NCBI GenBank assembly: GCA_016177405.1
Contig: JACOVG010000009.1
Location: 1-63,503 of the forward strand
From: Candidatus Omnitrophota bacterium
GTDB lineage: Bacteria; Omnitrophota; Gorgyraeia; 1-14-0-20-64-10
Direction: 5' to 3'
DNA: 63,503 bases
The notes under the pieces were generated by a model. That model was given only the letters and a program-made list of their open reading frames with translations. It was not told where the DNA came from and made no database searches. Numbering within the stretch: the stretch's first letter is position 1; every line of letters starts with the position of its first letter. Of this stretch, positions 4,110-24,711 are shown piece by piece. The translations under genes and the position numbers were made by a program.

Positions 4110-4197
4110 GGAGGGGTGCCGGAGTGGACGAACGGAGCGGTCCTGAAAACCGCCGAGGTCCTCGTGATCTCCGTAGGTTCGAATCCTACCCCCTCCG
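4110..4197 (+). tRNA. tRNA-Ser (anticodon UGA), class II long variable arm, C at position 33
   Basis: GGAGGGG/CCCCTCC acceptor, long variable arm, T-loop TTCGAAT, anticodon stem GCGGT/ACCGC with loop CCTGAAA. Starts 1 nt after the preceding stop codon. Confidence 0.75.
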
Positions 4198-4305: not shown

Positions 4306-4475
4306 CGTCATTGCGAGGCCCCGAAGGGGCCGAAGCAATCCCCGTTCGTCCTAAGCTTGTCGAAGGATGAACGTCATTCCCGCCCTCGATGTCATCCCCG
4401 ACTCGATCGGGGATCGGTCTCGAGGGCAGGCTCCAGCGGGAATCTCGTCATTGCGAAGGGCCGAAGCAGCCTCCC
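4306..4475. repeat. cluster of nested REP-like hairpins
   Basis: GTCATTGCGAGG..CGAAGCAATC (4307-4340). GTCATTCCCGC...GCGGGAATC contains a complete GTCATCCCCG..CGGGGATC unit (4391-4415) in its loop. A further GTCATTGCGAAGG copy follows. The ORF-track entries 4043..4643 here are translations of these repeats. Confidence 0.7.
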
Positions 4476-4499
4476 CTCGATTCTATGGCCTGCAGGGTA

Positions 4500-4620: not shown

Positions 4621-5751
4621 ATGAAAAATTTGTTTCCGGGTAAAACAATCTATGTGCTTGGGGCAGGCGCATCTATGCACACGGGGGCGCCACTCCTGAA
4701 CGATTTTCTAGCCCGGTCGCGGTCCCTGGTGGCGGGCAACAGCGGTTTGAAGTGGAAACCTGCCTTCGAGAACGTGCTGAGCTGGGTTGATTCCCTTCGA
4801 TCGCCAGCGTATTACCTCGACCTCGATCTCGACAATCTGGAGCATATCTTTTCGTTGATCGCCATGATGCAGGAAGTTAGTGAACCGCATGCAGACGAGT
4901 ATTACTCTGACATGTCAAAGTTGGTTTTTGAAACACTGGATAAAGAGTGTCAAGTCCAGCGGGCGGGCGGCCGTTACAATCCGGACCGTGTATATGAAAG
5001 GTTTGCGAAGCACGTAATGGATAGCAATGAAGAACGCAAACTTTCGATGCCCCAGTCCCAAGATGTTATCGTGACTCTGAACTACGACGTTTTGCTTGAC
5101 TATGTATTTTGGTTTGCATATTCAGGTTGTGATTACTGTCTTACCAAAAGCCGCGGGGAAGGGATTAGGTTGCTAAAACTCCATGGCTCAATGAACTGGG
5201 GTAGGCACCGGACGTGCGATGCGGAAGAAGGGAAACAGATTCAGGTTGTCAGAGCGAGTCCGATTGCAGATGGCCACCGCTGGATCTCACACGACGAAGA
5301 GAAAAGCCAAATCTTGCCATTTCAGATGTTTACCCATACGTTATATTACACTAAATGCAGGGGGTGCAAGAAAGACGGTGTTCTGGAACCCGTTTTTATT
5401 CCACCGACCTGGTTTAAAAGTTGCAGGGAGGAGCAGATCGATAATGTTTGGAAGCAAGCTGTAGAGGAGTTTAAAACAGCGCGTCAGATAGTAATAGTGG
5501 GGTATTCGCTTCCTCCAACAGATACTTTCTTGCCCTATTTATTGATGTTGGGTCTCGCGAACAACGCTGGATTGTATCGTGTTGTTGTGGTGAATCCGGA
5601 CAATCGAAATGATTTGCGTTCACGTTATGAGCGAATGTTCTCGAGAAACATGAGTGAACGCGGCCGATTGCAGTTCATGCCAATTGCGTTTGAGGTTTTT
5701 GTCGAAAGGTATTTGAGAGCTATTAGCGAAGGAGCACCAATAGAGGCTTGA
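4621..5751 (+). CDS. stand-alone SIR2-like (SIR2_2-type) protein, predicted NADase effector
   Basis: 376 aa. YVLGAGAS glycine loop, TLNYD Asn motif and LLKLHGSMNW (His188 at 5182-5184). Clear paralogue of 10547..11572. Confidence 0.7.
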   Translation: MKNLFPGKTIYVLGAGASMHTGAPLLNDFLARSRSLVAGNSGLKWKPAFENVLSWVDSLRSPAYYLDLDLDNLEHIFSLIAMMQEVSEPHADEYYSDMSKLVFETLDKECQVQRAGGRYNPDRVYERFAKHVMDSNEERKLSMPQSQDVIVTLNYDVLLDYVFWFAYSGCDYCLTKSRGEGIRLLKLHGSMNWGRHRTCDAEEGKQIQVVRASPIADGHRWISHDEEKSQILPFQMFTHTLYYTKCRGCKKDGVLEPVFIPPTWFKSCREEQIDNVWKQAVEEFKTARQIVIVGYSLPPTDTFLPYLLMLGLANNAGLYRVVVVNPDNRNDLRSRYERMFSRNMSERGRLQFMPIAFEVFVERYLRAISEGAPIEA

Positions 5752-5766
5752 TGGGGAGTAATTTCT

Positions 5767-5976
5767 GTGGACGCGAAGAAGCTCGGTAAGAAGATCAAGC
5801 TGGCCCGGGTGGAGCTGGATCTCACCCAAACCCAGCTTGCCCGGAAGATCGGCGCCAGGCAGAAAAGCATCTCCCGCTACGAGGCAGGGAAGTCAGTCCC
5901 CAAGGTTGAAACCCTTACAAAACTTGCCAGGGCTCTCAAGAAGCCGGCGGCGCATTTCTTGGATGAAACGGCATAA
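5767..5976 (+). CDS. XRE-family HTH regulator (C-protein-like controller)
   Basis: 69 aa, GTG start. LTQTQLARKIGARQKSISRYEAGKSVP helix-turn-helix. Directly precedes or overlaps the methyltransferase gene. Confidence 0.75.
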   Translation: MDAKKLGKKIKLARVELDLTQTQLARKIGARQKSISRYEAGKSVPKVETLTKLARALKKPAAHFLDETA

Positions 5977-7750
5977 CTGCATGTCACGCACTGGTAGATC
6001 TTCCCAATTGGCTCGCCCAAGTCAGCCAAAAGTGAGCACAGAAATTTTTACACAGCTATGTACCAATCAGAGGCCTACGGCAAAGAGCCAAAATTATCAG
6101 ATATGGAGCAAGGAAGAGCTTATAAGGGAAATCCAGAAGCTCGCAAAGCGGAAGAAGTATGGTGTTGTTTGGGAGGATAAACCTGAAGCAGTAGCTGATT
6201 TGTGCAAGGAAAAACTTCCTGTCTTGGCGGAGGATGAATTAAAGGCGGTTGTTTCAACCGAAGATGCGCCGGTGAACATATTGATCGAGGGAGATAATTA
6301 CCACGCCCTCTCGGTCTTGAACTACACCCATAAGGGCAGGGTGGACGTGATCTACATTGACCCGCCATTCAATACAGGGAATCAGAGCTGGAAGTACAAC
6401 AACGATTATGTTGAGAAGGATGATCAATGGAAACACAGCAAGTGGCTCTCATTCATGGACAAGAGGTTGCGATTGGCAAAGAGGTTGCTTGCTCCCAAAG
6501 GTGTGCTGATCTGCGCTATAGATCACAACGAGCAGGAAGGGCTCGGGCTGTTATTGCAGGAATTGTTTCCGAGCAAGGAAATAACCTGTGTGACGATCGT
6601 CCATAATCCAAGAGGAATACAGGGAAAGAATTTTGCCTATTGCCATGAATATGCCTATTTCGTCTATCCTCCCGGAGACAGCATCGGTAGAAAGCAGAGA
6701 CAGGAAGAAGACAAGGAATTTATGAACCTGAGGAACTGGGGTGGGGCTTCACGACGACGGGATGGGAAGAGCCTGTTCTACCCGATCTACTTCAAGAAGG
6801 GGAAGCTCATAAAAATCGGCGAGGTTCCTCAAGACAGCTTCCATCCAAAAAAGGCATACCTTGAATCCAAGGATGGTGTTGTAGAAATCTGGCCCATTGA
6901 TAACAAGGGAATAGAAAGAAAGTGGAGATATTCTCGGGCGTCTCTTGCGGAGCTCACCGAAGACTTACGACTGGCTTCCGTTGGAGGAGCGCTCCAGGTT
7001 CAACTGCTCAAGGATGAGGATAGGTACAAGACTGTCTGGATTGATACGAAATATGACGCCAATGCCTATGGAACGCAGTTAGTCCGAGAGCTCATCGGGA
7101 AGGAATTCCCCTTCCCAAAATCCCTCTATACAGTGAAGGAATGCTTGAACGCGGTTGCTTTGCACAACAAGAACGCGACGGTTCTGGATTTCTTCGCCGG
7201 CTCAGGTACGACTGGTCATGCCGTGTTGGAAATGAACAGAGCGGACGAGGGCGAGAGACGATTCATCTTGTGTACGAATAACGAGGGAAATATCTGCACA
7301 GAAATATGCCATCCTCGCATCAAGAAGGTTATCCAACAGTTAACGAAAGAAGCAAGGGGGGAAGCTGGTTCAGGCCGTCCGGGAGGCCTAAAATATTTCA
7401 GGACGGATTTTGTTGAGGCAACTCCTACTGACAAGAACAAGAAGCGTCTTGTAGACAAATCCACAGAAATGCTCTGCCTGAAGGAGGATTGCTTTGACGA
7501 GGTGAAGCGGACTGTGGACTACGCGATCTTTAGGAACGAGCAGGGTAAGCATCTTGGCATTGTTTATGAGGATGACGGGATTGAATCATTCAAAAGGGAA
7601 GTGAAAAGACTAAGTAGACAAACGGTTGTTTATGTTTTCTCCCTTGACGAGAGTGCGAGGGAAGAGGAGTTTGAGGATGTGCGCCTCCTTGTAGACCTGA
7701 AGCCCATCCCGGCAGTGATCTTGAACGTCTACAAGAGGATTTTCAAATGA
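5963..7750 (+). CDS. mod: type III R-M methyltransferase (Mod), beta-class N6A/N4C MTase
   Basis: IYIDPPFNTG (motif IV) precedes VLDFFAGSGTTGHA (motif I). The ORF-track start 5837 overlaps the HTH gene in another frame; in-frame ATGs at 5963 or 5981 are more plausible. Confidence 0.8.
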   Translation: MKRHNCMSRTGRSSQLARPSQPKVSTEIFTQLCTNQRPTAKSQNYQIWSKEELIREIQKLAKRKKYGVVWEDKPEAVADLCKEKLPVLAEDELKAVVSTEDAPVNILIEGDNYHALSVLNYTHKGRVDVIYIDPPFNTGNQSWKYNNDYVEKDDQWKHSKWLSFMDKRLRLAKRLLAPKGVLICAIDHNEQEGLGLLLQELFPSKEITCVTIVHNPRGIQGKNFAYCHEYAYFVYPPGDSIGRKQRQEEDKEFMNLRNWGGASRRRDGKSLFYPIYFKKGKLIKIGEVPQDSFHPKKAYLESKDGVVEIWPIDNKGIERKWRYSRASLAELTEDLRLASVGGALQVQLLKDEDRYKTVWIDTKYDANAYGTQLVRELIGKEFPFPKSLYTVKECLNAVALHNKNATVLDFFAGSGTTGHAVLEMNRADEGERRFILCTNNEGNICTEICHPRIKKVIQQLTKEARGEAGSGRPGGLKYFRTDFVEATPTDKNKKRLVDKSTEMLCLKEDCFDEVKRTVDYAIFRNEQGKHLGIVYEDDGIESFKREVKRLSRQTVVYVFSLDESAREEEFEDVRLLVDLKPIPAVILNVYKRIFK

Positions 7751-10455
7751 TCGAGCTGAAGAAGTATCAACACGACGCTGCGGATAACCTGAAAGAGCTG
7801 GTTGAGAAGGCGCTTAGATCTTCGGAGAATGAAGTGGTAATCTTCCAGGCGCCGACGGGCTCGGGGAAGACGCTCATGGTTTCCGAAGCCCTTAAGCGAC
7901 TTGTTAAGCACAGACCAGCAGGAGCCGGCCTCAGCTTCGTGTGGGTTTCAGTAAGGATGCTCCATGAGCAGAGCAAGGAGAAGCTCGAACGGTACTATGA
8001 GGACGACAGGCTCATCCAGTGCAGCTACTTCGATAATCTGGAAGACAGAAGAATTGCCGAGAACGAGATCCTGTTCATCAACTGGCACAGCATCAACAAG
8101 AAGGACATCAATATCTACGTCAAGGAAAACGAACAGGACAACAATCTCAATAGTATCGTCCAGAACACGAAGGATGAGGGTAGGCAGATAATCCTGATCA
8201 TTGACGAGAGCCACCATACAGCGAGCTCGGACAAGTCCAGGGAGCTGATTGAGGTAATATCCCCAAAGGCAACAATAGAGGTATCGGCCACGCCGCATCT
8301 CGCGGACGACGTCTCAGGCATTGAGAAGGTTCGCCTCGGGGACGTTAAAGGAGAAGAGATGATCAAATCGGAGATATCCGTGAATCCCGAATTCATGGAC
8401 ATAGAGATTGGCTCCAAGAGCTCGGACGAACTTGTCATAGAGCAGGCCCTGAAGAAGCGCGAGGAATTGGCGAAGCTCTTAAAGAAGCAGGGCTCGGAAG
8501 TGAACCCCCTCCTTCTAATTCAGCTTCCTGACAGGAAGGGAAACCTGATCAACAAAAAGGACACAGTAATAGAAATCCTTCGGAAGAAGGGCATCACTGA
8601 GCAGAAAGGCAATCTGGCTATATGGCTCTCAGAGGAGAAGTCCGACACGTTGCCGAACATCGAGAAGAATGACAACGATGTAGAAGTTCTGGTGTTCAAG
8701 CAAGCCATAGCATTGGGTTGGGACTGCCCTCGGGCAGCCATCCTCGTTATCTTTCGGGAATCGCACAGCTTCGTGTTTACTATCCAGACAATCGGCAGAA
8801 TCATGCGAATGCCAGAGCTTCGCTACTACGGAGAGGAGGAGTTGAACAAGGGCTTTGTGTTCACCAACCTGCCAAATATCGAGATTACCGAGGACTACGC
8901 GAAAGATTACGTTACGGTGTATGAGGCAAAACGGGACGATGCTCTATACAAGGAGGTTGCCCTGCCCTCAATCTATCTCAGAAGGCAGAGGGAAAGGACC
9001 AGGCTGTCAGGGAAGTTTGTAGATATCTTCCTGAGTGTGGCAGAGGAGTATAACTTGCAGAAGAGGATAACCGCAATCCCTTCGAAAGTGGTCAACCCGA
9101 TTATCGCCGATGGAAGAATTGTGAACATAGATCAGTCTGGGGAGGTTGCCCACAAGGGAACTGTTGACGTTCAATTGAATGAGGCGGAGCTACAGGATCG
9201 CTTTGACAGATTCGTGGCAGATATGTGTACACCCTTTGCTCCTGGCGATTCAAGCGACAGGATGAAGACAGCTCTGTATCAGTTCTTCAAGAAGACAACC
9301 AGGATTGATAAGTATAATCCGAGAGTCCAGCGCATTGTTCTTGGAAAGGAAAACGTTCAGACCTTCGTTGACACCATCAATATGGCAAAGGAGAGATTCC
9401 GGGCAGAGGTCATAGGAAAGTTGCAAGAGACGAGAGAAAAGGAGGTCACTCCAAAGTGGGAAATCCCTGCAATCACAAGCTACAACAGCAGGTACAAACG
9501 CCAGGATAAAACCAGATCAATAATGAAGCCGTTCTATGTAGCGAAACAGACTAGGCCCGAAGAGCAATTCGTAGAATTTCTTGAGGATTCAAAGCGTGCG
9601 AAGTGGTGGTTTAAGAATGGCGAGAGTGACCCGAGATATTTTGCTGTGCTTCGCACTGATGGCGCAGCGTTCTATCCCGATTTCATAGTTCAATTTGACA
9701 ACGGCAAGATTGGCATATTTGACACCAAGAGTGGAATAACTGCCAAGGACGCGAAAGAAAGGGCCGAAGGCTTGCAGAAGTACATCAAAGAGCAGGTCAA
9801 GAAGGGCAGGAAACTGTGGGGAGGCATCGTGCTCTCCAAGGACGGAAGTTTCAGGTACAACGATTCAGAGGTTTATTCTTTTGACGAAAAGGCGTTGGGG
9901 ATGGACTGGAAAGTTCTGAGTTTCGAGCGAGTTGAGAGAGAGGCACCTCCTGTCTCCACCATAGCCCCGCTTGAACGTATTGTGCCGGAAGAGGAGGAGA
10001 AGTACCGGACATGCGTTCCCCACCGGACGCTCAAGGCGGCCGCCGGGTCATTTGGAGAGGCGCAGACTGTTGAGCCGGATGGGTGGGTTAAGGTTCCGAC
10101 GTCTCGCCGCCTGCGCCCAGGTATGTTCGTTGCTCAGGTTGTCGGTCGGTCCATGGAGCCGCTCATTCCGTCGGGATCGTGGTGCCTCTTTGTGGGGCCT
10201 GTAGAGGGTAGCCGGCAGGGTCGCATCGTCCTTGTCCAGCACCGCGACATCCAGGATCCGGAGACGGACGGAAGCTACACGGTGAAACGCTATCGGCGCA
10301 CAGGGGAGAGTAACAGGGAAGGGGCAGAGCGCCACGGCGAGATTCGCCTGGAGCCGCTAAATCCCGAGTTTGAGCCGATCATCCTCAAGAATATCCTTGA
10401 GGATGAGGTACAGGTCATTGCTGAGCTCGTGGAAATACTCAAGGTACACCTGTAA
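7747..10455 (+). CDS. res: type III restriction enzyme Res (SF2 helicase plus PD-(D/E)xK nuclease) fused to a C-terminal S24 LexA-like peptidase domain
   Basis: FQAPTGSGKT, IIDESHH, SATP and QTIGRIMR helicase motifs. YPDF...IFDTKSG nuclease motif. The last ~150 aa carry LKAAAG/S (Ala766-Gly767), VVGRSMEP (Ser802) and TVKRY (Lys847). ATGA overlap with mod. Confidence 0.8.
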   Translation: MIELKKYQHDAADNLKELVEKALRSSENEVVIFQAPTGSGKTLMVSEALKRLVKHRPAGAGLSFVWVSVRMLHEQSKEKLERYYEDDRLIQCSYFDNLEDRRIAENEILFINWHSINKKDINIYVKENEQDNNLNSIVQNTKDEGRQIILIIDESHHTASSDKSRELIEVISPKATIEVSATPHLADDVSGIEKVRLGDVKGEEMIKSEISVNPEFMDIEIGSKSSDELVIEQALKKREELAKLLKKQGSEVNPLLLIQLPDRKGNLINKKDTVIEILRKKGITEQKGNLAIWLSEEKSDTLPNIEKNDNDVEVLVFKQAIALGWDCPRAAILVIFRESHSFVFTIQTIGRIMRMPELRYYGEEELNKGFVFTNLPNIEITEDYAKDYVTVYEAKRDDALYKEVALPSIYLRRQRERTRLSGKFVDIFLSVAEEYNLQKRITAIPSKVVNPIIADGRIVNIDQSGEVAHKGTVDVQLNEAELQDRFDRFVADMCTPFAPGDSSDRMKTALYQFFKKTTRIDKYNPRVQRIVLGKENVQTFVDTINMAKERFRAEVIGKLQETREKEVTPKWEIPAITSYNSRYKRQDKTRSIMKPFYVAKQTRPEEQFVEFLEDSKRAKWWFKNGESDPRYFAVLRTDGAAFYPDFIVQFDNGKIGIFDTKSGITAKDAKERAEGLQKYIKEQVKKGRKLWGGIVLSKDGSFRYNDSEVYSFDEKALGMDWKVLSFERVEREAPPVSTIAPLERIVPEEEEKYRTCVPHRTLKAAAGSFGEAQTVEPDGWVKVPTSRRLRPGMFVAQVVGRSMEPLIPSGSWCLFVGPVEGSRQGRIVLVQHRDIQDPETDGSYTVKRYRRTGESNREGAERHGEIRLEPLNPEFEPIILKNILEDEVQVIAELVEILKVHL

Positions 10456-10546: not shown

Positions 10547-11572
10547 ATGAAGATAGCTCGCCTTTCCCTTGAAAAAAGAGCAGCGGTAATTCTTGGTGCG
10601 GGAGCAACAAGGGGCGCAAGTTGTTTCAAGAATACCTGGAAGGTTCCACCTTTGGATGGAGACTTTTTCTCGAAAATCCAGATGATTGCTGACGAACTGC
10701 CAGGAGGCGAGTCGGCAGAGCTTCTTTCGTTAGCTCGTTCAGAATTTGGTGAAGAGTTAGATGTCTCGATGGAGAAATTCTTTACCCAAATTGAATTCCT
10801 CGATACATTTCATAGAGATTTAAGGATACGAGGACCTAGAGTTAGAAGATACGATGACATTTTAAGGAACTATGTTGGAACGATAGCGTCTGTATTCGGG
10901 GCAATTCTTCTCGAGAGCAACGGTCGAGAGAAGTCTTGTGATTATCACGATGCGCTTGCAGCCGCTCTCCAGCCTCGAGATGTGATTCTATCTTTTAATT
11001 ATGATTGTCTCATGGACAGGGCTCTTCAGAAGCACTCTGGAAAACGCTGGAGCGCTGGAAGAGGATATGGTTTCGAGATCAAGAAGGGTATCGAAGGATG
11101 GCAGAATCGTGCTGGTAAGGGGCGGATTGCCAAGGAATCGATTTTGCTTCTGAAGATGCACGGCTCGCTCAATTGGGATAGGCGCTGGAGGGGCTATACA
11201 AAATTGCGCTCGGAACCGTACACTTCAGACGTTCGTGGATCTAACGAGATAATTCCCCCCATTTGGAATAAGGACATTGCTGGCGACAATAAGTTGGCTG
11301 GGGTATGGAAGATGGCGCGGATGGCTTTGAGACGCGGTCCGATTCTATTGGTAGTTGGATATTCTGTTCCAGAGACCGACTTACTGAGCCAGGCCTTGAT
11401 AAGGGTAGCAACCTCCGAAGGTTCAAGGAAGCTATCGCATCTAATCATAGCCAACCCCGATCTCGAAGCGAGAGCGAGAGTTAAACGATTGGTTCGGAAG
11501 GCTATTGGGGATAGGACGAGGGTGATTGAATTGGAAACATTTGAGGAGTTGGCGGAACTACTAAGACCGTAG
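10547..11572 (+). CDS. stand-alone SIR2-like (SIR2_2-type) protein, paralogue of 4621..5751
   Basis: 341 aa. VILGAGATRGAS, SFNYDCLMD, LLKMHGSLNW (His205 at 11159-11161), VVGYSVPETD. Collinear motif order with the first SIR2-like ORF. Confidence 0.7.
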   Translation: MKIARLSLEKRAAVILGAGATRGASCFKNTWKVPPLDGDFFSKIQMIADELPGGESAELLSLARSEFGEELDVSMEKFFTQIEFLDTFHRDLRIRGPRVRRYDDILRNYVGTIASVFGAILLESNGREKSCDYHDALAAALQPRDVILSFNYDCLMDRALQKHSGKRWSAGRGYGFEIKKGIEGWQNRAGKGRIAKESILLLKMHGSLNWDRRWRGYTKLRSEPYTSDVRGSNEIIPPIWNKDIAGDNKLAGVWKMARMALRRGPILLVVGYSVPETDLLSQALIRVATSEGSRKLSHLIIANPDLEARARVKRLVRKAIGDRTRVIELETFEELAELLRP

Positions 11573-11746: not shown

Positions 11747-11914
11747 ATGGCGGAAGGTGGATTCTTAGTCACGTTTGACGCGAAGAAGGCAAAACCCCAA
11801 AGGTGTTACGCGGTGGCGTTTGATTACGATGAGTGGGCTTACAGTGTCAATGATAAGAAAAAGGCCGCGATACCCAAGGGAACTGCAAAGATCACCATTG
11901 AGATTGAGCTGTAG
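11747..11914 (+). CDS. small hypothetical protein (55 aa)
   Basis: ATG at 11747 preceded by GGAGGT 8 nt upstream. The longer ORF-track start 11639 lies inside repeat sequence. No recognisable motif. Confidence 0.3.
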   Translation: MAEGGFLVTFDAKKAKPQRCYAVAFDYDEWAYSVNDKKKAAIPKGTAKITIEIEL

Positions 11915-13406
11915 CAGGGGCAACGCCAAGATCGCGCGGTCGGCAGGCGCGCTCGCGCTCACCCTCCTTGCCGCCCCCGCCTATCCCTACCAAGCCGACG
12001 TTGAGCTGATCCCGCCGGGCCGCTACGCGGAGGTCACCGTGCGGGAGATCCGGCAGGCCAAGACCTCCATCCACCTCGTCATGTACCTCATCTCCCTGCC
12101 GCCGACCAAGACCAGCTCGGTGGTGCACCAACTGCTGGATGCCCTCGTCGAAGCCCAATCGCGCGGGGTGGCTGTGCAGGTGGTCCTGGATGAGAACGTG
12201 GATTGGAGCGAGGACAGCGTCCTGAACTTCCAGGCTGTCTCGGAGAAGAATGGGCCGGCTGCCCGGTACCTCCAAGCGCGGGGGGTTCGCGTATTCTTCG
12301 ATGATGCGACAATGTTCACGCACGCGAAGACCCTGGTCATTGACGAAACGACCACCATCCTCGGATCTGCTAACTGGAGCGAGACGGCCCTCACCCAAAG
12401 CGTAGAGACCAACACCTTGATCCGCTCCTCCGCCTTCGCCCGGGAGGTTCTGCGGAGCCTGGCGGCCGTGGCGCGGCATGCCTCGGCGGCGGGGGCCGCG
12501 GAAGGCGTGCCGGTGTCCTGGGCGTTCCTGGGCGATCCGGCATTGCTGGGGCGGCTGGTGGCCGCCCGGGATGTGCGGGCGTTGGATCTCTACCTGCTGT
12601 TGCTGCGGCGGTTCGACGGGAATCCCGAGGGCAGGGTGGCCATTCACGATGAGACCATTCGAGAGGCGCTGGGCGTCCGGAAGTATCCCGACTGGCAGAA
12701 CACCGTCTGGAAGGTACTGCGGCGGCTGGAGCGCCGCTACGGGTTGATCACCGCCACGGCTGGTCAGGATCGGACCGTGCGGCTCAAAACCCCCGGCCGT
12801 CCCTCCGAACCTTACCAGGCGCCGCTCAACGCCACCGTCCGGGTGCCTGCCGGCTACTGGGAGTGGGGCTGGCACCGAACACTGACCTTGCCTGGCAAGG
12901 TGATGTACTTGTTGGGCCAGCATTACGCCGCGGTGTCGCCCACGGCCCCGGTGTGGTTTCACTCGCTGGAGCATCTGCAGGCTGCTCACGGGTTTTCGAG
13001 CGAGTTTGCCCAGCGTGGCCTTCGGGAGCTTCGCCGGCGCAATCTGGTGGACGCGAAGGCGGATGTGTTGGCGCCGGGGCAATACCATCGGCGGAAGGCC
13101 AACCGGTATGTTCTCCGTGCGTTGTATGACCCGGCCGTGCCGGCGAAACAGCTCGCGGCTTTGGAGGTCCGGCACGGGCGCCAGACCGTCCGGCGGGCGG
13201 CGGCCTACGCCGCGCTTGTGTATGAAGACAACGATGTGGGGGCCATCGAACGGTTGATCCAGTTGGAAACGTTGTATGGCCCCTCCGTGGTGCGGACCGC
13301 CGCCCGCAAGATTGGTGCCATGCATGGGAGCAACCCCAAGCGGACGGCAGCGTATCTCATTCGGACCATCGAGGGGATCGGCCGCGACACCGCGCGGGGC
13401 AAGTGA
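11904..13406 (+). CDS. secreted single-HKD phospholipase D/Nuc-like protein with C-terminal winged-helix-like region
   Basis: FTHAKTLVIDETTTILGSANWSETAL (HxK...GSxN; His codon at 12321). Signal-peptide-like ARSAGALALTLLAAPAYP. A TTG at 11904 gives a sensible N-terminus; the ORF-track ATG at 11775 overlaps the upstream small ORF. Confidence 0.6.
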   Translation: MSCSRGNAKIARSAGALALTLLAAPAYPYQADVELIPPGRYAEVTVREIRQAKTSIHLVMYLISLPPTKTSSVVHQLLDALVEAQSRGVAVQVVLDENVDWSEDSVLNFQAVSEKNGPAARYLQARGVRVFFDDATMFTHAKTLVIDETTTILGSANWSETALTQSVETNTLIRSSAFAREVLRSLAAVARHASAAGAAEGVPVSWAFLGDPALLGRLVAARDVRALDLYLLLLRRFDGNPEGRVAIHDETIREALGVRKYPDWQNTVWKVLRRLERRYGLITATAGQDRTVRLKTPGRPSEPYQAPLNATVRVPAGYWEWGWHRTLTLPGKVMYLLGQHYAAVSPTAPVWFHSLEHLQAAHGFSSEFAQRGLRELRRRNLVDAKADVLAPGQYHRRKANRYVLRALYDPAVPAKQLAALEVRHGRQTVRRAAAYAALVYEDNDVGAIERLIQLETLYGPSVVRTAARKIGAMHGSNPKRTAAYLIRTIEGIGRDTARGK

Positions 13407-13484
13407 GGCGCCCTCTGGCCAGGCCAGCAGCCCGTCCCGGACGCGGATCTGGAACGTCCTGTTATAATGTCAGTTGATCGTTCT

Positions 13485-13571
13485 GGAGAGATGCCAGAGT
13501 GGACGATCGGGACCGCCTCGAAAGCGGTTAGGCCCGCAAGGGTCTCGGAGGTTCGAATCCTCCTCTCTCCG
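13485..13571 (+). tRNA. tRNA-Ser (anticodon CGA)
   Basis: GGAGAGA/TCTCTCC acceptor, anticodon stem ACCGC/GCGGT with loop CTCGAAA, long variable arm, T-loop TTCGAAT. Confidence 0.85.
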
Positions 13572-13587
13572 AAGATTCCACTTTCCT

Positions 13588-13679
13588 GGAGAGGTTGCTG
13601 AGTGGCTGAAAGCACGCGACTGGAAATCGCGTAGCTGCCGAAAGGTGGCTCCAGGGTTCGAATCCCTGCCTCTCCGCCA
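13588..13679 (+). tRNA. tRNA-Ser (anticodon GGA), CCA encoded
   Basis: GGAGAGG/CCTCTCC acceptor, anticodon stem CGCGA/TCGCG with loop CTGGAAA, long variable arm, ends GCCA. Confidence 0.85.
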
Positions 13680-20928: not shown

Positions 20929-21049
20929 CTCCCCCCTCTTTTTGCCTATTGAGTTTCCTAAGGTAACGGTTTAGGTTTCTCATCTTCTTCGGGTGCCAGG
21001 TTTGACACCCACTCGGTTTGCCCTTACACTTGTATCGATTGTGGTTCAT

Positions 21050-21398
21050 TCCCCGGTAGCTCAGTTGGTAGAGCGGGTGACTGTACACGAAGTTAGCAGC
21101 CCCGGCCGGAAACGGCCGGGTGAAACAGCGAGTAAATTCAGGGAACCCCGCCAAGATTTGTGGCGGGCAATCCTGAGCCAAGCCCTGTCTTGTCATCCCC
21201 GCGTAGGCGGGGATCGGAAGTTGGGGAAGGTGCAGAGACTAGACACTCGCCACCTAAAGGTACAGACCGTCATTGCGAGCCCCGCAGGGGCGAAGCAATC
21301 TCGCTTGTGCCCATGGTGAAGGGATAGTCCTACCCCCTCGGTAACGAGGGAAGGTCGTAATCACCATGTCCCAGGTTCGAGTCCTGGCCGGGGAGCCA
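21050..21398 (+). tRNA. tRNA-Asn (anticodon GUU) interrupted by a group I intron in the anticodon loop
   Basis: Exon 1 is 21050-21084 (TCCCCGGTAGCTCAGTTGGTAGAGCGGGTGACTGT). Exon 2 is 21358-21398 (TAATCACCATGTCCCAGGTTCGAGTCCTGGCCGGGGAGCCA). Joined they give a canonical class I tRNA with loop CTGTTAA, close to my recollection of E. coli tRNA-Asn. Confidence 0.85.
21085..21357 (+). ncRNA. group I (IC3-like) self-splicing intron
   Basis: 273 nt. The 5' exon ends in U, which can form a U.G pair with intron GCAG (P1 CUGU/GCAG), and the intron ends in G. Core strings AAATTCAGGGAA, CAATCCTGAGCCAAGC and GGTGCAGAGACTAGAC..CCACCTAAAGG closely resemble my recollection of the Azoarcus tRNA-Ile intron. 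Confidence 0.8.
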
Positions 21399-23046: not shown

Positions 23047-24711
23047 ATGACTCGTCTCCCGGAAGGCAGAGAGGACAGCGTGTTGGACGCTACCCAGGAA
23101 GCGAAGGCGCCCGCAACCAAAATCGATCCCCATGAGTTGCCAGTGGCGGGCGCGGAAGCGAAACCTGAAGGGTATGACATGGTCAGAAGCCGCCGACCTA
23201 AAAAGGGGAATCCGCCGCAGGAACAATCCATCCTTGATATGGATAGCTCGGAGGCCAGAAAGTTTTTGCTCAAGCCGGAGAGCTACTGCAGTATCGACCT
23301 CCCTCCCTATCTGCGATTCGACCAAGTGCTGTCCAACGTATCGAAAGCAATCGGTAACAAGAAGCTTTTGGGAATGCAGAGGATTAGTCCCGGGAAATGT
23401 GAGGGGGTCAATTATCCGCTGCTGTCGAACAAAGACGGTCGGTATGCATGGCGACCGCTTCAGTTGATTCATCCTGCGCTCTATGTCTCGCTCGTGAATG
23501 ATGTCACTACGGAGTCCAACTGGGAAGGCATCCGAAAGCGTTTCTCAACCTTTCAGGCGCTCGACAAAATTCGGTGCCTAAGCATCCCCGTGCGATCTCG
23601 GACGGGTCGCAAGGACCAGGCTACACGAATTCGGCACTGGTGGCAGGGCATCGAACAGGGCTCGGTCGAGTTGGCACTCGATTACGCGTATGTTTTGCAC
23701 GCCGACATCACAGATTGTTATGCTGCAATCTACACGCATTCGATCGCGTGGGCTCTCCACGGGAAACCCTTGGCGAAGGAAAGAAGGCCCGAGGATGACT
23801 CATTGATCGGTAATGTGATCGACCGACACATCCAGAACATGCGGTACGGTCAGACCAACGGGATTCCTCAAGGATCTGTTTTGATGGATCTTATCGCAGA
23901 GATGGTTCTAGGATACGCGGACTTGGAGCTGAGTAGCCGGCTCAAGAAGGACGGGATCGGTGATTACCAGATTCTTCGCTATCGCGACGACTACCGCATC
24001 TTTGCCAATAATCCTCGGCTTGGCGAAGCCATATTGAAGGCCTTGACTGAGGTGTTAATCGGCCCTGGGCTTAAGCTCAATACCGCGAAGACCACAAGTC
24101 ACGAATCGGTGGTGAGCAGTTCCTTGAAGCCGGATAAGGTCGCGTGGTTAAGGAGCAAACAAGATAACCGGGATCTACAGAAATACTTGCTCTTGATTCA
24201 CGCTCATGGACTGGACTATCCGAATTCGGGCAGTTTGGTCGTCGCGTTAACTCACTTCTACGAATGCCTTAGCAAAGCCAAGACCATTAAGAATCCGCGG
24301 TCGCTGATAAGCATTGCAGTGGACATTGCCTACCGCAGTCCGCGAATATTTCCCGTCTGTGCGGCCATCACTAGTAAGGTTTTAAGCACGCTGGAAAGCG
24401 ATGCAGAGAAAGTCGATCTAATTAGGAGGATTCATAAAAAGCTATCGCAGATGCCCAATACTGGCCACATGGAGATATGGCTCCAGCGGATCAGCCATCC
24501 GTACGATAGGGGAATTGCCCTAGAGGAAAGCCTATGCCAACTCGTCAATGGTAAGGAGGATGTGCGGCTTTGGAATAATGAGTGGATATCCGCTAAACAA
24601 TTACTAGCCGCTCTCAATCCCAAGACTATCGTGGATATGCGGAAGCTGAAGTCACTAAAACCGGTTGTACCGCCTGCGGAGATTAAACTGTTTTCCTATG
24701 AGAGGTACTGA
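23047..24711 (+). CDS. reverse transcriptase, Abi/UG (defence-associated) type with helical C-terminal extension
   Basis: 554 aa. HADITDCYAAIYTHSIAWAL (motif A region), GIPQGSVLMDLIAEMVL (motif B), ILRYRDDYRIF (YxDD box at 23980-23991). No endonuclease or maturase signatures seen. Confidence 0.8.
   Translation: MTRLPEGREDSVLDATQEAKAPATKIDPHELPVAGAEAKPEGYDMVRSRRPKKGNPPQEQSILDMDSSEARKFLLKPESYCSIDLPPYLRFDQVLSNVSKAIGNKKLLGMQRISPGKCEGVNYPLLSNKDGRYAWRPLQLIHPALYVSLVNDVTTESNWEGIRKRFSTFQALDKIRCLSIPVRSRTGRKDQATRIRHWWQGIEQGSVELALDYAYVLHADITDCYAAIYTHSIAWALHGKPLAKERRPEDDSLIGNVIDRHIQNMRYGQTNGIPQGSVLMDLIAEMVLGYADLELSSRLKKDGIGDYQILRYRDDYRIFANNPRLGEAILKALTEVLIGPGLKLNTAKTTSHESVVSSSLKPDKVAWLRSKQDNRDLQKYLLLIHAHGLDYPNSGSLVVALTHFYECLSKAKTIKNPRSLISIAVDIAYRSPRIFPVCAAITSKVLSTLESDAEKVDLIRRIHKKLSQMPNTGHMEIWLQRISHPYDRGIALEESLCQLVNGKEDVRLWNNEWISAKQLLAALNPKTIVDMRKLKSLKPVVPPAEIKLFSYERY

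Follow-up and report, generated by a model that had tools for sequence, protein, structure and literature searches.

Why a type III-like restriction subunit should end in a LexA-like autopeptidase is the question raised by the res-S24 gene on contig JACOVG010000009.1 of the Candidatus Omnitrophota bacterium assembly GCA_016177405.1, of which positions 1 to 63,503 of the forward strand (63,503 nucleotides (nt); hereafter the window) were analysed. The 902 amino acid (aa) product comprises a type III-like Res body (aa 1-726) and a 176-aa tail. An earlier reading of the letters alone (the sequence-only reading) had taken the C-terminus for a LexA/UmuD/CI-type S24 domain. The analysis agrees: a true S24 domain of the LexA-like kind forms the tail and is joined in frame to a type III-like Res subunit. 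This tail is very likely to be a real, catalytically competent, post-translational proteolytic regulator of restriction enzymes, through which DNA damage can probably switch restriction by proteolysis; the direction, which we infer, is most likely off.

The domain assignment was made at the level of profile, fold and catalytic layout. Peptidase_S24 (PF00717) matched aa 765-895 of the full protein with an E-value of 9e-11 and 41.9 bits against a cut-off of 23.3, and the tail scored by itself gave 8.1e-12. The AlphaFold2 model of aa 727-902 had a predicted local distance difference test score (pLDDT) of 88.1 and a predicted template modelling score (pTM) of 0.82, and when it was compared with PDB using Foldseek, the top 38 matches were all LexA, the lambda CI C-domain or UmuD' (best E 2.7e-5, target-normalised TM-score up to 0.74), with signal peptidases next at E ~0.1. 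Alignment of the tail-clade profile to E. coli LexA using hhalign gave a probability of 93% and an E-value of 2.4e-7. This alignment paired GRS802M with GMS119M, and TVK847RY...LEPLNPEFEPI with TVK156RL...LLPENSEFKPI, and placed the AAAG motif of the tail on VAA/G of LexA (A84-G85; the slash marks the cleavage point) with an offset of one residue. The distance from Gly767 to Ser802 is 35 residues, and the equivalent distance in LexA is 34. The predicted scissile bond Ala766-Gly767 and the dyad residues Ser802 and Lys847 had been positioned exactly by the sequence-only reading (Table 1), and hhalign places the dyad in the LexA register; the Peptidase_S24 match and the LexA/CI/UmuD' fold of the tail model likewise bore out its S24 assignment.

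Searches of PDB chains with the tail as a single sequence and with the clade profile gave no match at E<=0.01; it was comparison of folds that connected the tail with LexA in PDB. The LexA SOS repressor proper was considered as an identity for the tail and excluded, as the N-terminal partner is Res and not a winged-helix DNA-binding domain, and the tail scored 16.7 bits against the LexA equivalog TIGR00498, below the cut-off of 110.95. The full-length AlphaFold2 model (pLDDT 69.5, pTM 0.38) is too poor to read domain packing and was used for the linker only; here, aa 729-740 have pLDDT <50, consistent with a flexible linker. Homology to the tails of other enzymes begins at about aa 731-741.

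The body to which the tail is attached carries the superfamily 2 (SF2) ATPase motifs GSGKT38, DESHH153 and SATP180, with motif VI (QTIGR347) farther along. A candidate PD-(D/E)xK nuclease motif can be read towards the end of the body (Table 1), for which no supporting profile or solved-structure match was found. The Res body gave no match at E<=0.01 against PDB sequences, and PADLOC REase_III models matched it in part only (1e-17). The partner expected of a type III Res is present, since the gene ahead of res encodes a type III-class Mod and overlaps it, the mod stop and the res ATG sharing the sequence ATGA.

Several observations indicate that the fusion is not specific to one assembly. Six contigs, each assembled separately, yielded exactly this 902-aa protein in gene calling, and two orthologues (P0002 and P0003), whose Res bodies are 80% and 78% identical to that of the window (78-80% among all three), share both the fusion and its junction in different genomic surroundings. 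A frameshift or assembly chimera at about position 9960, which the sequence-only reading had named as fatal to its proposal, is not the case: the frame is clean, and the six contigs and both orthologues agree. Among the 120 closest Res homologues, 117 have no tail; these are ~726 aa long, are 68-77% identical over the body, and end at aa 726-728 with ...WK(V/I)LSF, equivalent to aa 726 of the window protein. Because they stop at this point, the comparison identifies the tail as an optional add-on set exactly on the native C-terminus, and not as part of the enzyme core. With a tail on 3/120 homologues, the type III instance is rare. An origin by fusion with a downstream neighbour gene was also considered and set aside: P0004, the sole S24-less relative checked, has an integrase gene downstream and not S24, which is too few to generalise.

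GC content rises from 0.46-0.49 to 0.63 over approximately 9950-10400 and then falls back to 0.45. A jump at about 9960, at the end of Res, had been noted in the sequence-only reading and interpreted as recent domain acquisition. The jump is real, the Res body ends slightly earlier (aa 726, nt 9924), and the interpretation as recent or horizontal acquisition was dropped after codon-position analysis. The rise sits in codon positions 1 and 2 (GC1 0.51 to 0.71, GC2 0.32 to 0.43) with GC3 nearly flat between body and tail (0.638 to 0.670), and is therefore compositional, with no sign of recent acquisition. The tail has few Lys and Asn and many Arg, Pro, Gly and Val residues, and the jump reflects this amino acid composition of the S24 domain. 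GC3 of the host genes dnaX and PEP carboxylase in the window is 0.86, which far exceeds the value in either part of res. The GC jump at the tail recurs in both orthologues and, as their Res bodies are only ~80% identical to that of the window, the fusion is old and predates the split of the three res genes.

The module is not confined to Res. The nearest relatives of the tail (60-72% identity) were short proteins, several of which carry stubs of PF11867 (HsdR C-terminal) or PF18135 (Type ISP C-terminal). Of 1.84 billion cluster representatives searched, 1739 matched at E<=1e-10, of which 601 did so at E<=1e-30, with the match in nearly all cases at the C-terminal end of the protein. Species-representative genomes, one for each species, were scanned with the tail-clade alignment, and at least 478 stretches encoding tail relatives were found. 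Reading frames were extended in the best 80 of these loci. A ~1180-aa Type I HsdR (HSDR_N + SWI2_SNF2 + T1R_D3) was encoded at 48/80 loci, and Type ISP/IIG-like methylase-nucleases at 16/80; the latter comprise 11 N6_Mtase + Eco57I + Type_ISP_C enzymes (1130-2347 aa), some of which also carry PLD and SNF2 domains, and five Eco57I/MmeI-like enzymes of ~1500 aa. The remaining loci encode DEAD + Helicase_C + MZB proteins of ~2000 aa (three), short forms (12) and an unclassified fragment at a contig edge (one). The S24 tail is the extreme C-terminus of every long form, the HsdR-S24 genes examined are directly preceded by HsdS genes, and all 80 loci come from metagenome-assembled genomes spanning many phyla. 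Type I HsdR is the common carrier form and type III a rare instance; the sequence-only reading, which had treated the fusion as a one-off, was incomplete in this respect, as Type I HsdR and Type ISP/IIG enzymes commonly carry the module. The tail and its relatives form a separate S24 clade, which makes up the extreme C-terminus of big restriction enzymes.

Source annotations of tail relatives read LexA, phage repressor, S24 peptidase or HsdR, and NCBIfam holds no model for the tail. The short S24 proteins were considered as independent stand-alone regulators, a view that was rejected because some at least represent the terminal piece of an enzyme that is broken or split. The short forms P0125 and P0179 keep T1RH-like_C or Type_ISP_C stubs, and at locus L006 (1564-8765) the domains found in the 2347-aa single-chain enzyme of locus L080 are spread over three pieces. 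Many of the 'LexA', 'phage repressor' and 'S24 peptidase' labels on short metagenomic contigs therefore probably denote C-terminal fragments of restriction enzymes. L035 (6449-13636) exemplifies split ISP-like systems, in which the methylase/recognition chain carries the S24 tail and the PLD-SNF2 nuclease-motor chain, encoded by a separate gene upstream, does not; at L035 a gene with a reverse-transcriptase domain is found downstream of the S24-tailed gene. At locus L002, the S24 module stands beside an AAA_15/AAA_21 ATPase. A search of a phage collection gave no match to the module, and a plasmid collection gave a single distant match, from Halomonas. In the cultured Halomonas sp. PA16-9 (L091; NZ_CP040452.1, 1645241-1659702), a copy at 6986-7465 with 41% identity overlaps, out of frame, the end of a 686-aa Schlafen-group-3 (DUF2075) helicase open reading frame (ORF), next to PIN_8 and AbiEi/AbiEii genes; the copy can be read as a frameshifted fusion or as an overlapping gene.

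Conservation was assessed over 83 tails, namely those of the 80 genome loci and the three Res proteins. A766, G767, F769, G800, S802, M803 and K847 are invariant (83/83), A765 is kept in 82 and A764 in 68. Because the residues of the predicted site and dyad (A766, G767, S802, M803, K847) are among those that never vary, the pattern indicates selection for self-cleavage and not for the fold alone. The terminal domain of these large NTP-dependent restriction enzymes, a catalytically complete S24 autopeptidase including its substrate loop, is thus subject to strong purifying selection. Tails of different enzyme classes were interleaved in a neighbour-joining tree built without support values. The window tail shares 81% identity with the P0002 tail and 66% with the tail of a Planctomycetota HsdR, against only 49% with the P0003 tail, and the first ~15 linker residues are similar in all three Res-S24 proteins. 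As the window tail is closer to that of a Planctomycetota HsdR than to that of P0003, despite 78% identity of the Res bodies, the module has been exchanged among restriction enzymes. The domain next to it differs between carriers: in Res it is the candidate nuclease domain, in HsdR-derived proteins the stretch labelled T1RH-like_C, and in ISP/IIG enzymes a domain for target recognition.

On the mechanism that we propose, the Res subunit is a functional type III-like one, and a portable module of ~170 aa, consisting of a catalytically intact LexA-family S24 autopeptidase with its own Ala-Gly loop, has been joined to the native C-terminus of the enzyme via a flexible linker. A DNA-damage signal, most probably filaments of RecA on single-stranded DNA (RecA-ssDNA; RecA*), the trigger of LexA, UmuD and CI, would drive the loop into the Ser802/Lys847 site, and the protein would cut itself between A766 and G767. 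The S24 core would then depart, and the linker and pre-cleavage segment (aa 727-766) would remain on Res, giving the enzyme a new end ...TLKAAA. This ...LKAAA-COOH terminus would function as do the ssrA tag (...LAA) and the C-degron that lies buried in LexA (...VAA): ClpXP-type proteases would clear the enzyme and restriction would be off while repair and recombination produce unmethylated host sites. The same fuse would operate on Type I HsdR, Type ISP/IIG enzymes and other large defence NTPases. The sites of lambda CI and UmuD, VQA/G and VQC/G, do not have Ala-Ala at P2/P3, and the near-invariant AAA of the tail therefore suggests an extra constraint on the module.

Two lines of published work are relevant to the later steps. 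LexA-like proteins are described as hiding ClpXP C-degrons right at the cleavage site (PMC5742171, citing Neher 2003 and Niu 2010). Alleviation of Type I restriction follows UV, 2-aminopurine or nalidixic acid, and after such DNA damage ClpXP degrades HsdR, sparing unmodified chromosomal sites (PMC3874165; PMC4231737); no degron or sensor has been identified in E. coli HsdR, where ClpXP recognises translocating complexes (PMC4231737). The full chain, from a RecA* trigger through self-cleavage and degradation to restriction alleviation, falls a little short of being probable. The broadest claim, that self-cleaving restriction enzymes constitute a large class not described before, in which an S24 fuse was repeatedly added to HsdR, ISP/IIG, Res and giant defence helicases and which wires RecA-ssDNA filaments to enzyme destruction, is more tentative still.

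A number of points weigh against the proposed off-switch. Cleavage, RecA dependence and degradation are all predictions, and AAA may be conserved for substrate-loop geometry alone. Reports of damage-induced alleviation concern Type I enzymes, and we know of none for type III. In split systems of the L035 type, loss of the S24-tailed chain would remove methylation too, a poorer fit to classic alleviation. Distant or short copies stand beside defence NTPases outside restriction-modification (R-M), namely the Halomonas Schlafen-group-3 helicase and the L002 AAA_15 ATPase, for which an activation logic is equally conceivable. Some LexA-like proteins are cleaved independently of RecA, as reported for IrvR (PMC7101444).

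Restriction alleviation is nonetheless more likely than the opposite direction, in which the S24 tail would hold the enzyme inactive until RecA* on phage intermediates or damaged DNA caused self-cleavage and yielded an active nuclease. The sequence-only reading had allowed for either direction, with restriction 'switched or unleashed', and its second option corresponds to this on-switch. Such an on-switch draws on the same catalytic evidence (Pfam, fold and 83/83 conservation) and could explain the module beside abortive-infection-type NTPases (the L002 AAA_15/AAA_21 ATPase and the Halomonas helicase); DNA damage or ssDNA is also known to set off certain defence systems, AbpAB being an example (PMC10732053). 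It is disfavoured because restriction must strike incoming DNA before that DNA is methylated, an opportunity that an enzyme waiting for RecA* would forfeit, and self and non-self are already told apart by methylation. An inhibitory tail would in addition need specific interfaces with the putative Res nuclease, the HsdR C-terminal helical region and the ISP/IIG recognition domain, yet the module swaps freely; since it works beside differing domains and moves among classes, a generic mechanism such as degron exposure is favoured over a co-evolved autoinhibitory interface. The 117 tailless homologues point the same way, as a body whose closest sisters mostly have no tail needs none for restraint or activation, which again favours a generic degron-type device over a tailored inhibitor. 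No confident docking of tail on body was seen in the full-length model, itself poor (pTM 0.38). We therefore regard an on-switch as unlikely.

Similarly unlikely, and next in order, is real self-cleavage with a trigger other than RecA*, whether slow constitutive maturation, another stress signal or a phage protein, which would make the tail a timer or sensor apart from SOS. The clade has diverged so far from LexA, CI and UmuD that the surfaces contacting RecA need not persist, and the RecA-independent cleavage of IrvR mentioned above is a precedent. To our knowledge, all well-studied S24 autopeptidases with the same layout respond to RecA*, and the biology of restriction alleviation supplies a ready reason for a DNA-damage trigger. 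An improbable third reading dispenses with cleavage and takes the tail for a dimerisation or RecA-filament docking module that tethers or pairs enzymes. The S24 C-domains of LexA, CI and UmuD' dimerise, dimeric PDB entries were among the Foldseek matches, and Type I and type III enzymes function in multi-subunit or cooperating assemblies; on the other side, Ser, Lys and Ala-Gly are invariant in 83/83 tails over five enzyme architectures, which would be unexpected if catalysis were dispensable. Lastly, an artefact (assembly chimera, frameshifted pseudogene or two-gene read-through), to which the sharp GC change near the junction and the broken or split appearance of some relatives (L006; the out-of-frame Halomonas copy) might have pointed, is effectively refuted already by the single clean frame, the identical protein in six separate assemblies, the same junction in two diverged orthologues, the continuity of GC3 over the junction and dozens of independent full-length fusions in other enzyme classes.

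The gene lies in a layout in which a small regulator-like gene and mod precede res (Table 1). The mod of the P0002 orthologue locus (L010) likewise has a small helix-turn-helix (HTH) gene ahead of it. The start of mod in the window is ambiguous, as the frame is open from 5837; a separate gene call gives a product of 595 aa. Scans for promoters and terminators gave signals no better than chance.

Table 1 Coordinates of the res-S24 operon and of the elements of its product in the window
Feature	Position (nt)	Strand	Basis
Small HTH_3 gene (XRE/C-protein-like), 69 aa, operon head	5767..5976	+	Pfam HTH_3 9.5e-16
mod, type III-class N6/N4 DNA methyltransferase	5963..7750	+	Pfam N6_N4_Mtase 7e-26; PADLOC MTase_III 4.5e-72
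res-S24 fusion gene, 902 aa, single open frame	7747..10455	+	ORF without stop or frameshift; Pfam two-domain
ResIII / SF2 ATPase N-lobe, aa 2-184	7750..8298	+	Pfam ResIII PF04851 9.4e-23
Candidate PD-(D/E)xK nuclease motif, P644-D645...D659-T-K661	9676..9729	+	Read from sequence; also in S24-less homologues
Linker and pre-cleavage segment, aa 727-766	9925..10044	+	S24-less homologues stop at aa 726-728
Predicted scissile bond Ala766-Gly767	10042..10047	+	Invariant in 83/83 clade members
S24 catalytic core, aa 767-902, predicted release product	10045..10452	+	Pfam S24; AlphaFold2; LexA/CI/UmuD' fold
Nucleophile Ser802 in GRSMEP	10150..10152	+	Invariant in 83/83; aligns to LexA S119
General base Lys847 in TVKRY	10285..10287	+	Invariant in 83/83; aligns to LexA K156 in TVKRL

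The operon is located in a low-GC defence island of ~4.2-11.7 kb, between a tRNA-Ser(tga) gene (4110-4197) and two more tRNA-Ser genes (13484-13679); no att-like direct repeat or integrase was found between the flanking tRNA-Ser genes. Two SIR2_2-like genes that are only distantly related (4621-5751 and 10547-11572; 25% identity, E 6e-17) flank mod-res on the same strand, with matches to PADLOC SIR2 / Aga_SIR2 models. They are not kept beside the P0002 and P0003 orthologues and are therefore probably separate defence genes of the island. A 543-aa ORF at 11775-13406, with high, host-like GC, encodes a PLDc_2 (DrmC-like) nuclease domain with a long C-terminal extension. Farther along, a tRNA gene is split by a group I intron (21045-21398; Rfam RF00028, 70.1 bits at 21056-21351); the intron is bordered by tRNA-like 5' and 3' halves, for which ARAGORN gave no tRNA call. 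An RVT_1 reverse-transcriptase ORF (23047-24711) lies within a lower-GC stretch of ~20-35 kb. A GC-rich hairpin-like repeat, CGTCATTGCGAG...GAAGCAATC, is found directly after tRNA-Ser(tga) (4306-4348 and 4446-4479) and inside the group I intron (21268-21305); its 11-nt core does not exceed chance, as three matches were reached in 13/100 shuffles.

Full-text literature searches, with subscription journals outside their coverage, found no paper on S24-restriction enzyme fusions, and a 2025 restriction-modification review does not mention S24, LexA or peptidase. The parts are known; within the literature searched, the architecture and the mode of control that it implies are new, in keeping with the sequence-only reading, whose author knew of no characterised restriction enzyme regulated in this way. 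The matter is of consequence as restriction enzymes can kill their own host when repair or recombination leaves chromosomal sites unmethylated. Only in the case of E. coli Type IA/IB enzymes is the means of preventing such self-damage understood, and even there no recognition signal has been identified (PMC4231737). If the proposal is true, S24 tails would be the missing sensor for restriction alleviation in the many bacteria in which no degron is known for the E. coli ClpXP mechanism, and would provide the first case in which a defence effector, and not a repressor, is the direct substrate of the SOS signal. A self-contained module of ~170 aa that is carried on unrelated scaffolds may also serve as a damage-responsive tag for protein removal.

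Compared with type III R-M systems such as EcoP15I and EcoP1I (Res-Mod), the window locus has the same order of mod and overlapping res, ResIII SF2 motifs and a type III-class Mod, with a candidate C-terminal PD..DxK motif besides; it differs in its short 726-aa body, the lack of a sequence match to a solved structure and the partial REase_III match. Characterised type III enzymes are not known to have a C-terminal S24 tail, whereas the window Res has one. With LexA, UmuD and lambda CI (MEROPS S24), the tail has in common the fold, the Ser-Lys dyad in G-x-S-M and T-V-K-R, the Ala-Gly substrate loop ~35 residues upstream of the Ser, and PxNxxFxPI after the Lys. Unlike these proteins it has no DNA-binding domain, its N-terminal partner being a 726-aa helicase and putative nuclease here and HsdR, ISP/IIG or other enzymes elsewhere; its clade is too divergent for a PDB sequence match, and has its own conserved pre-site segment, Y-x-T-C-V-P-L-x-x-L-K-A-A-A/G-x-F. 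E. coli LexA 1-84 ends in VAA. Like the latent C-degrons of the LexA-like repressors LexA (...VAA), IrvR and HdiR, the predicted new C-terminus of Res, ...KAAA, is rich in small non-polar residues. The degraded cargo of LexA-like repressors is a small DNA-binding domain, whereas here it would be a large enzyme with a putative ...KAAA degron. The proposed outcome is that of EcoKI/EcoAI HsdR alleviation (Type IA/IB), in which the restriction subunit is proteolysed after damage, and most tail carriers are themselves HsdR; no built-in sensor or degron has been found in EcoKI/EcoAI HsdR, and the S24 autoprotease would supply both. Coupling of defence to DNA damage is reportedly achieved in cyclic-oligonucleotide-based anti-phage signalling systems (CBASS) by CapH/CapP, transcriptionally and via separate regulators. 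Control of R-M by RptR (PMC12255303) also ties immunity to the state of the DNA, and is likewise transcriptional and exerted by a separate regulator protein. In res-S24, in contrast to both, the predicted sensor-protease is part of the effector polypeptide itself.

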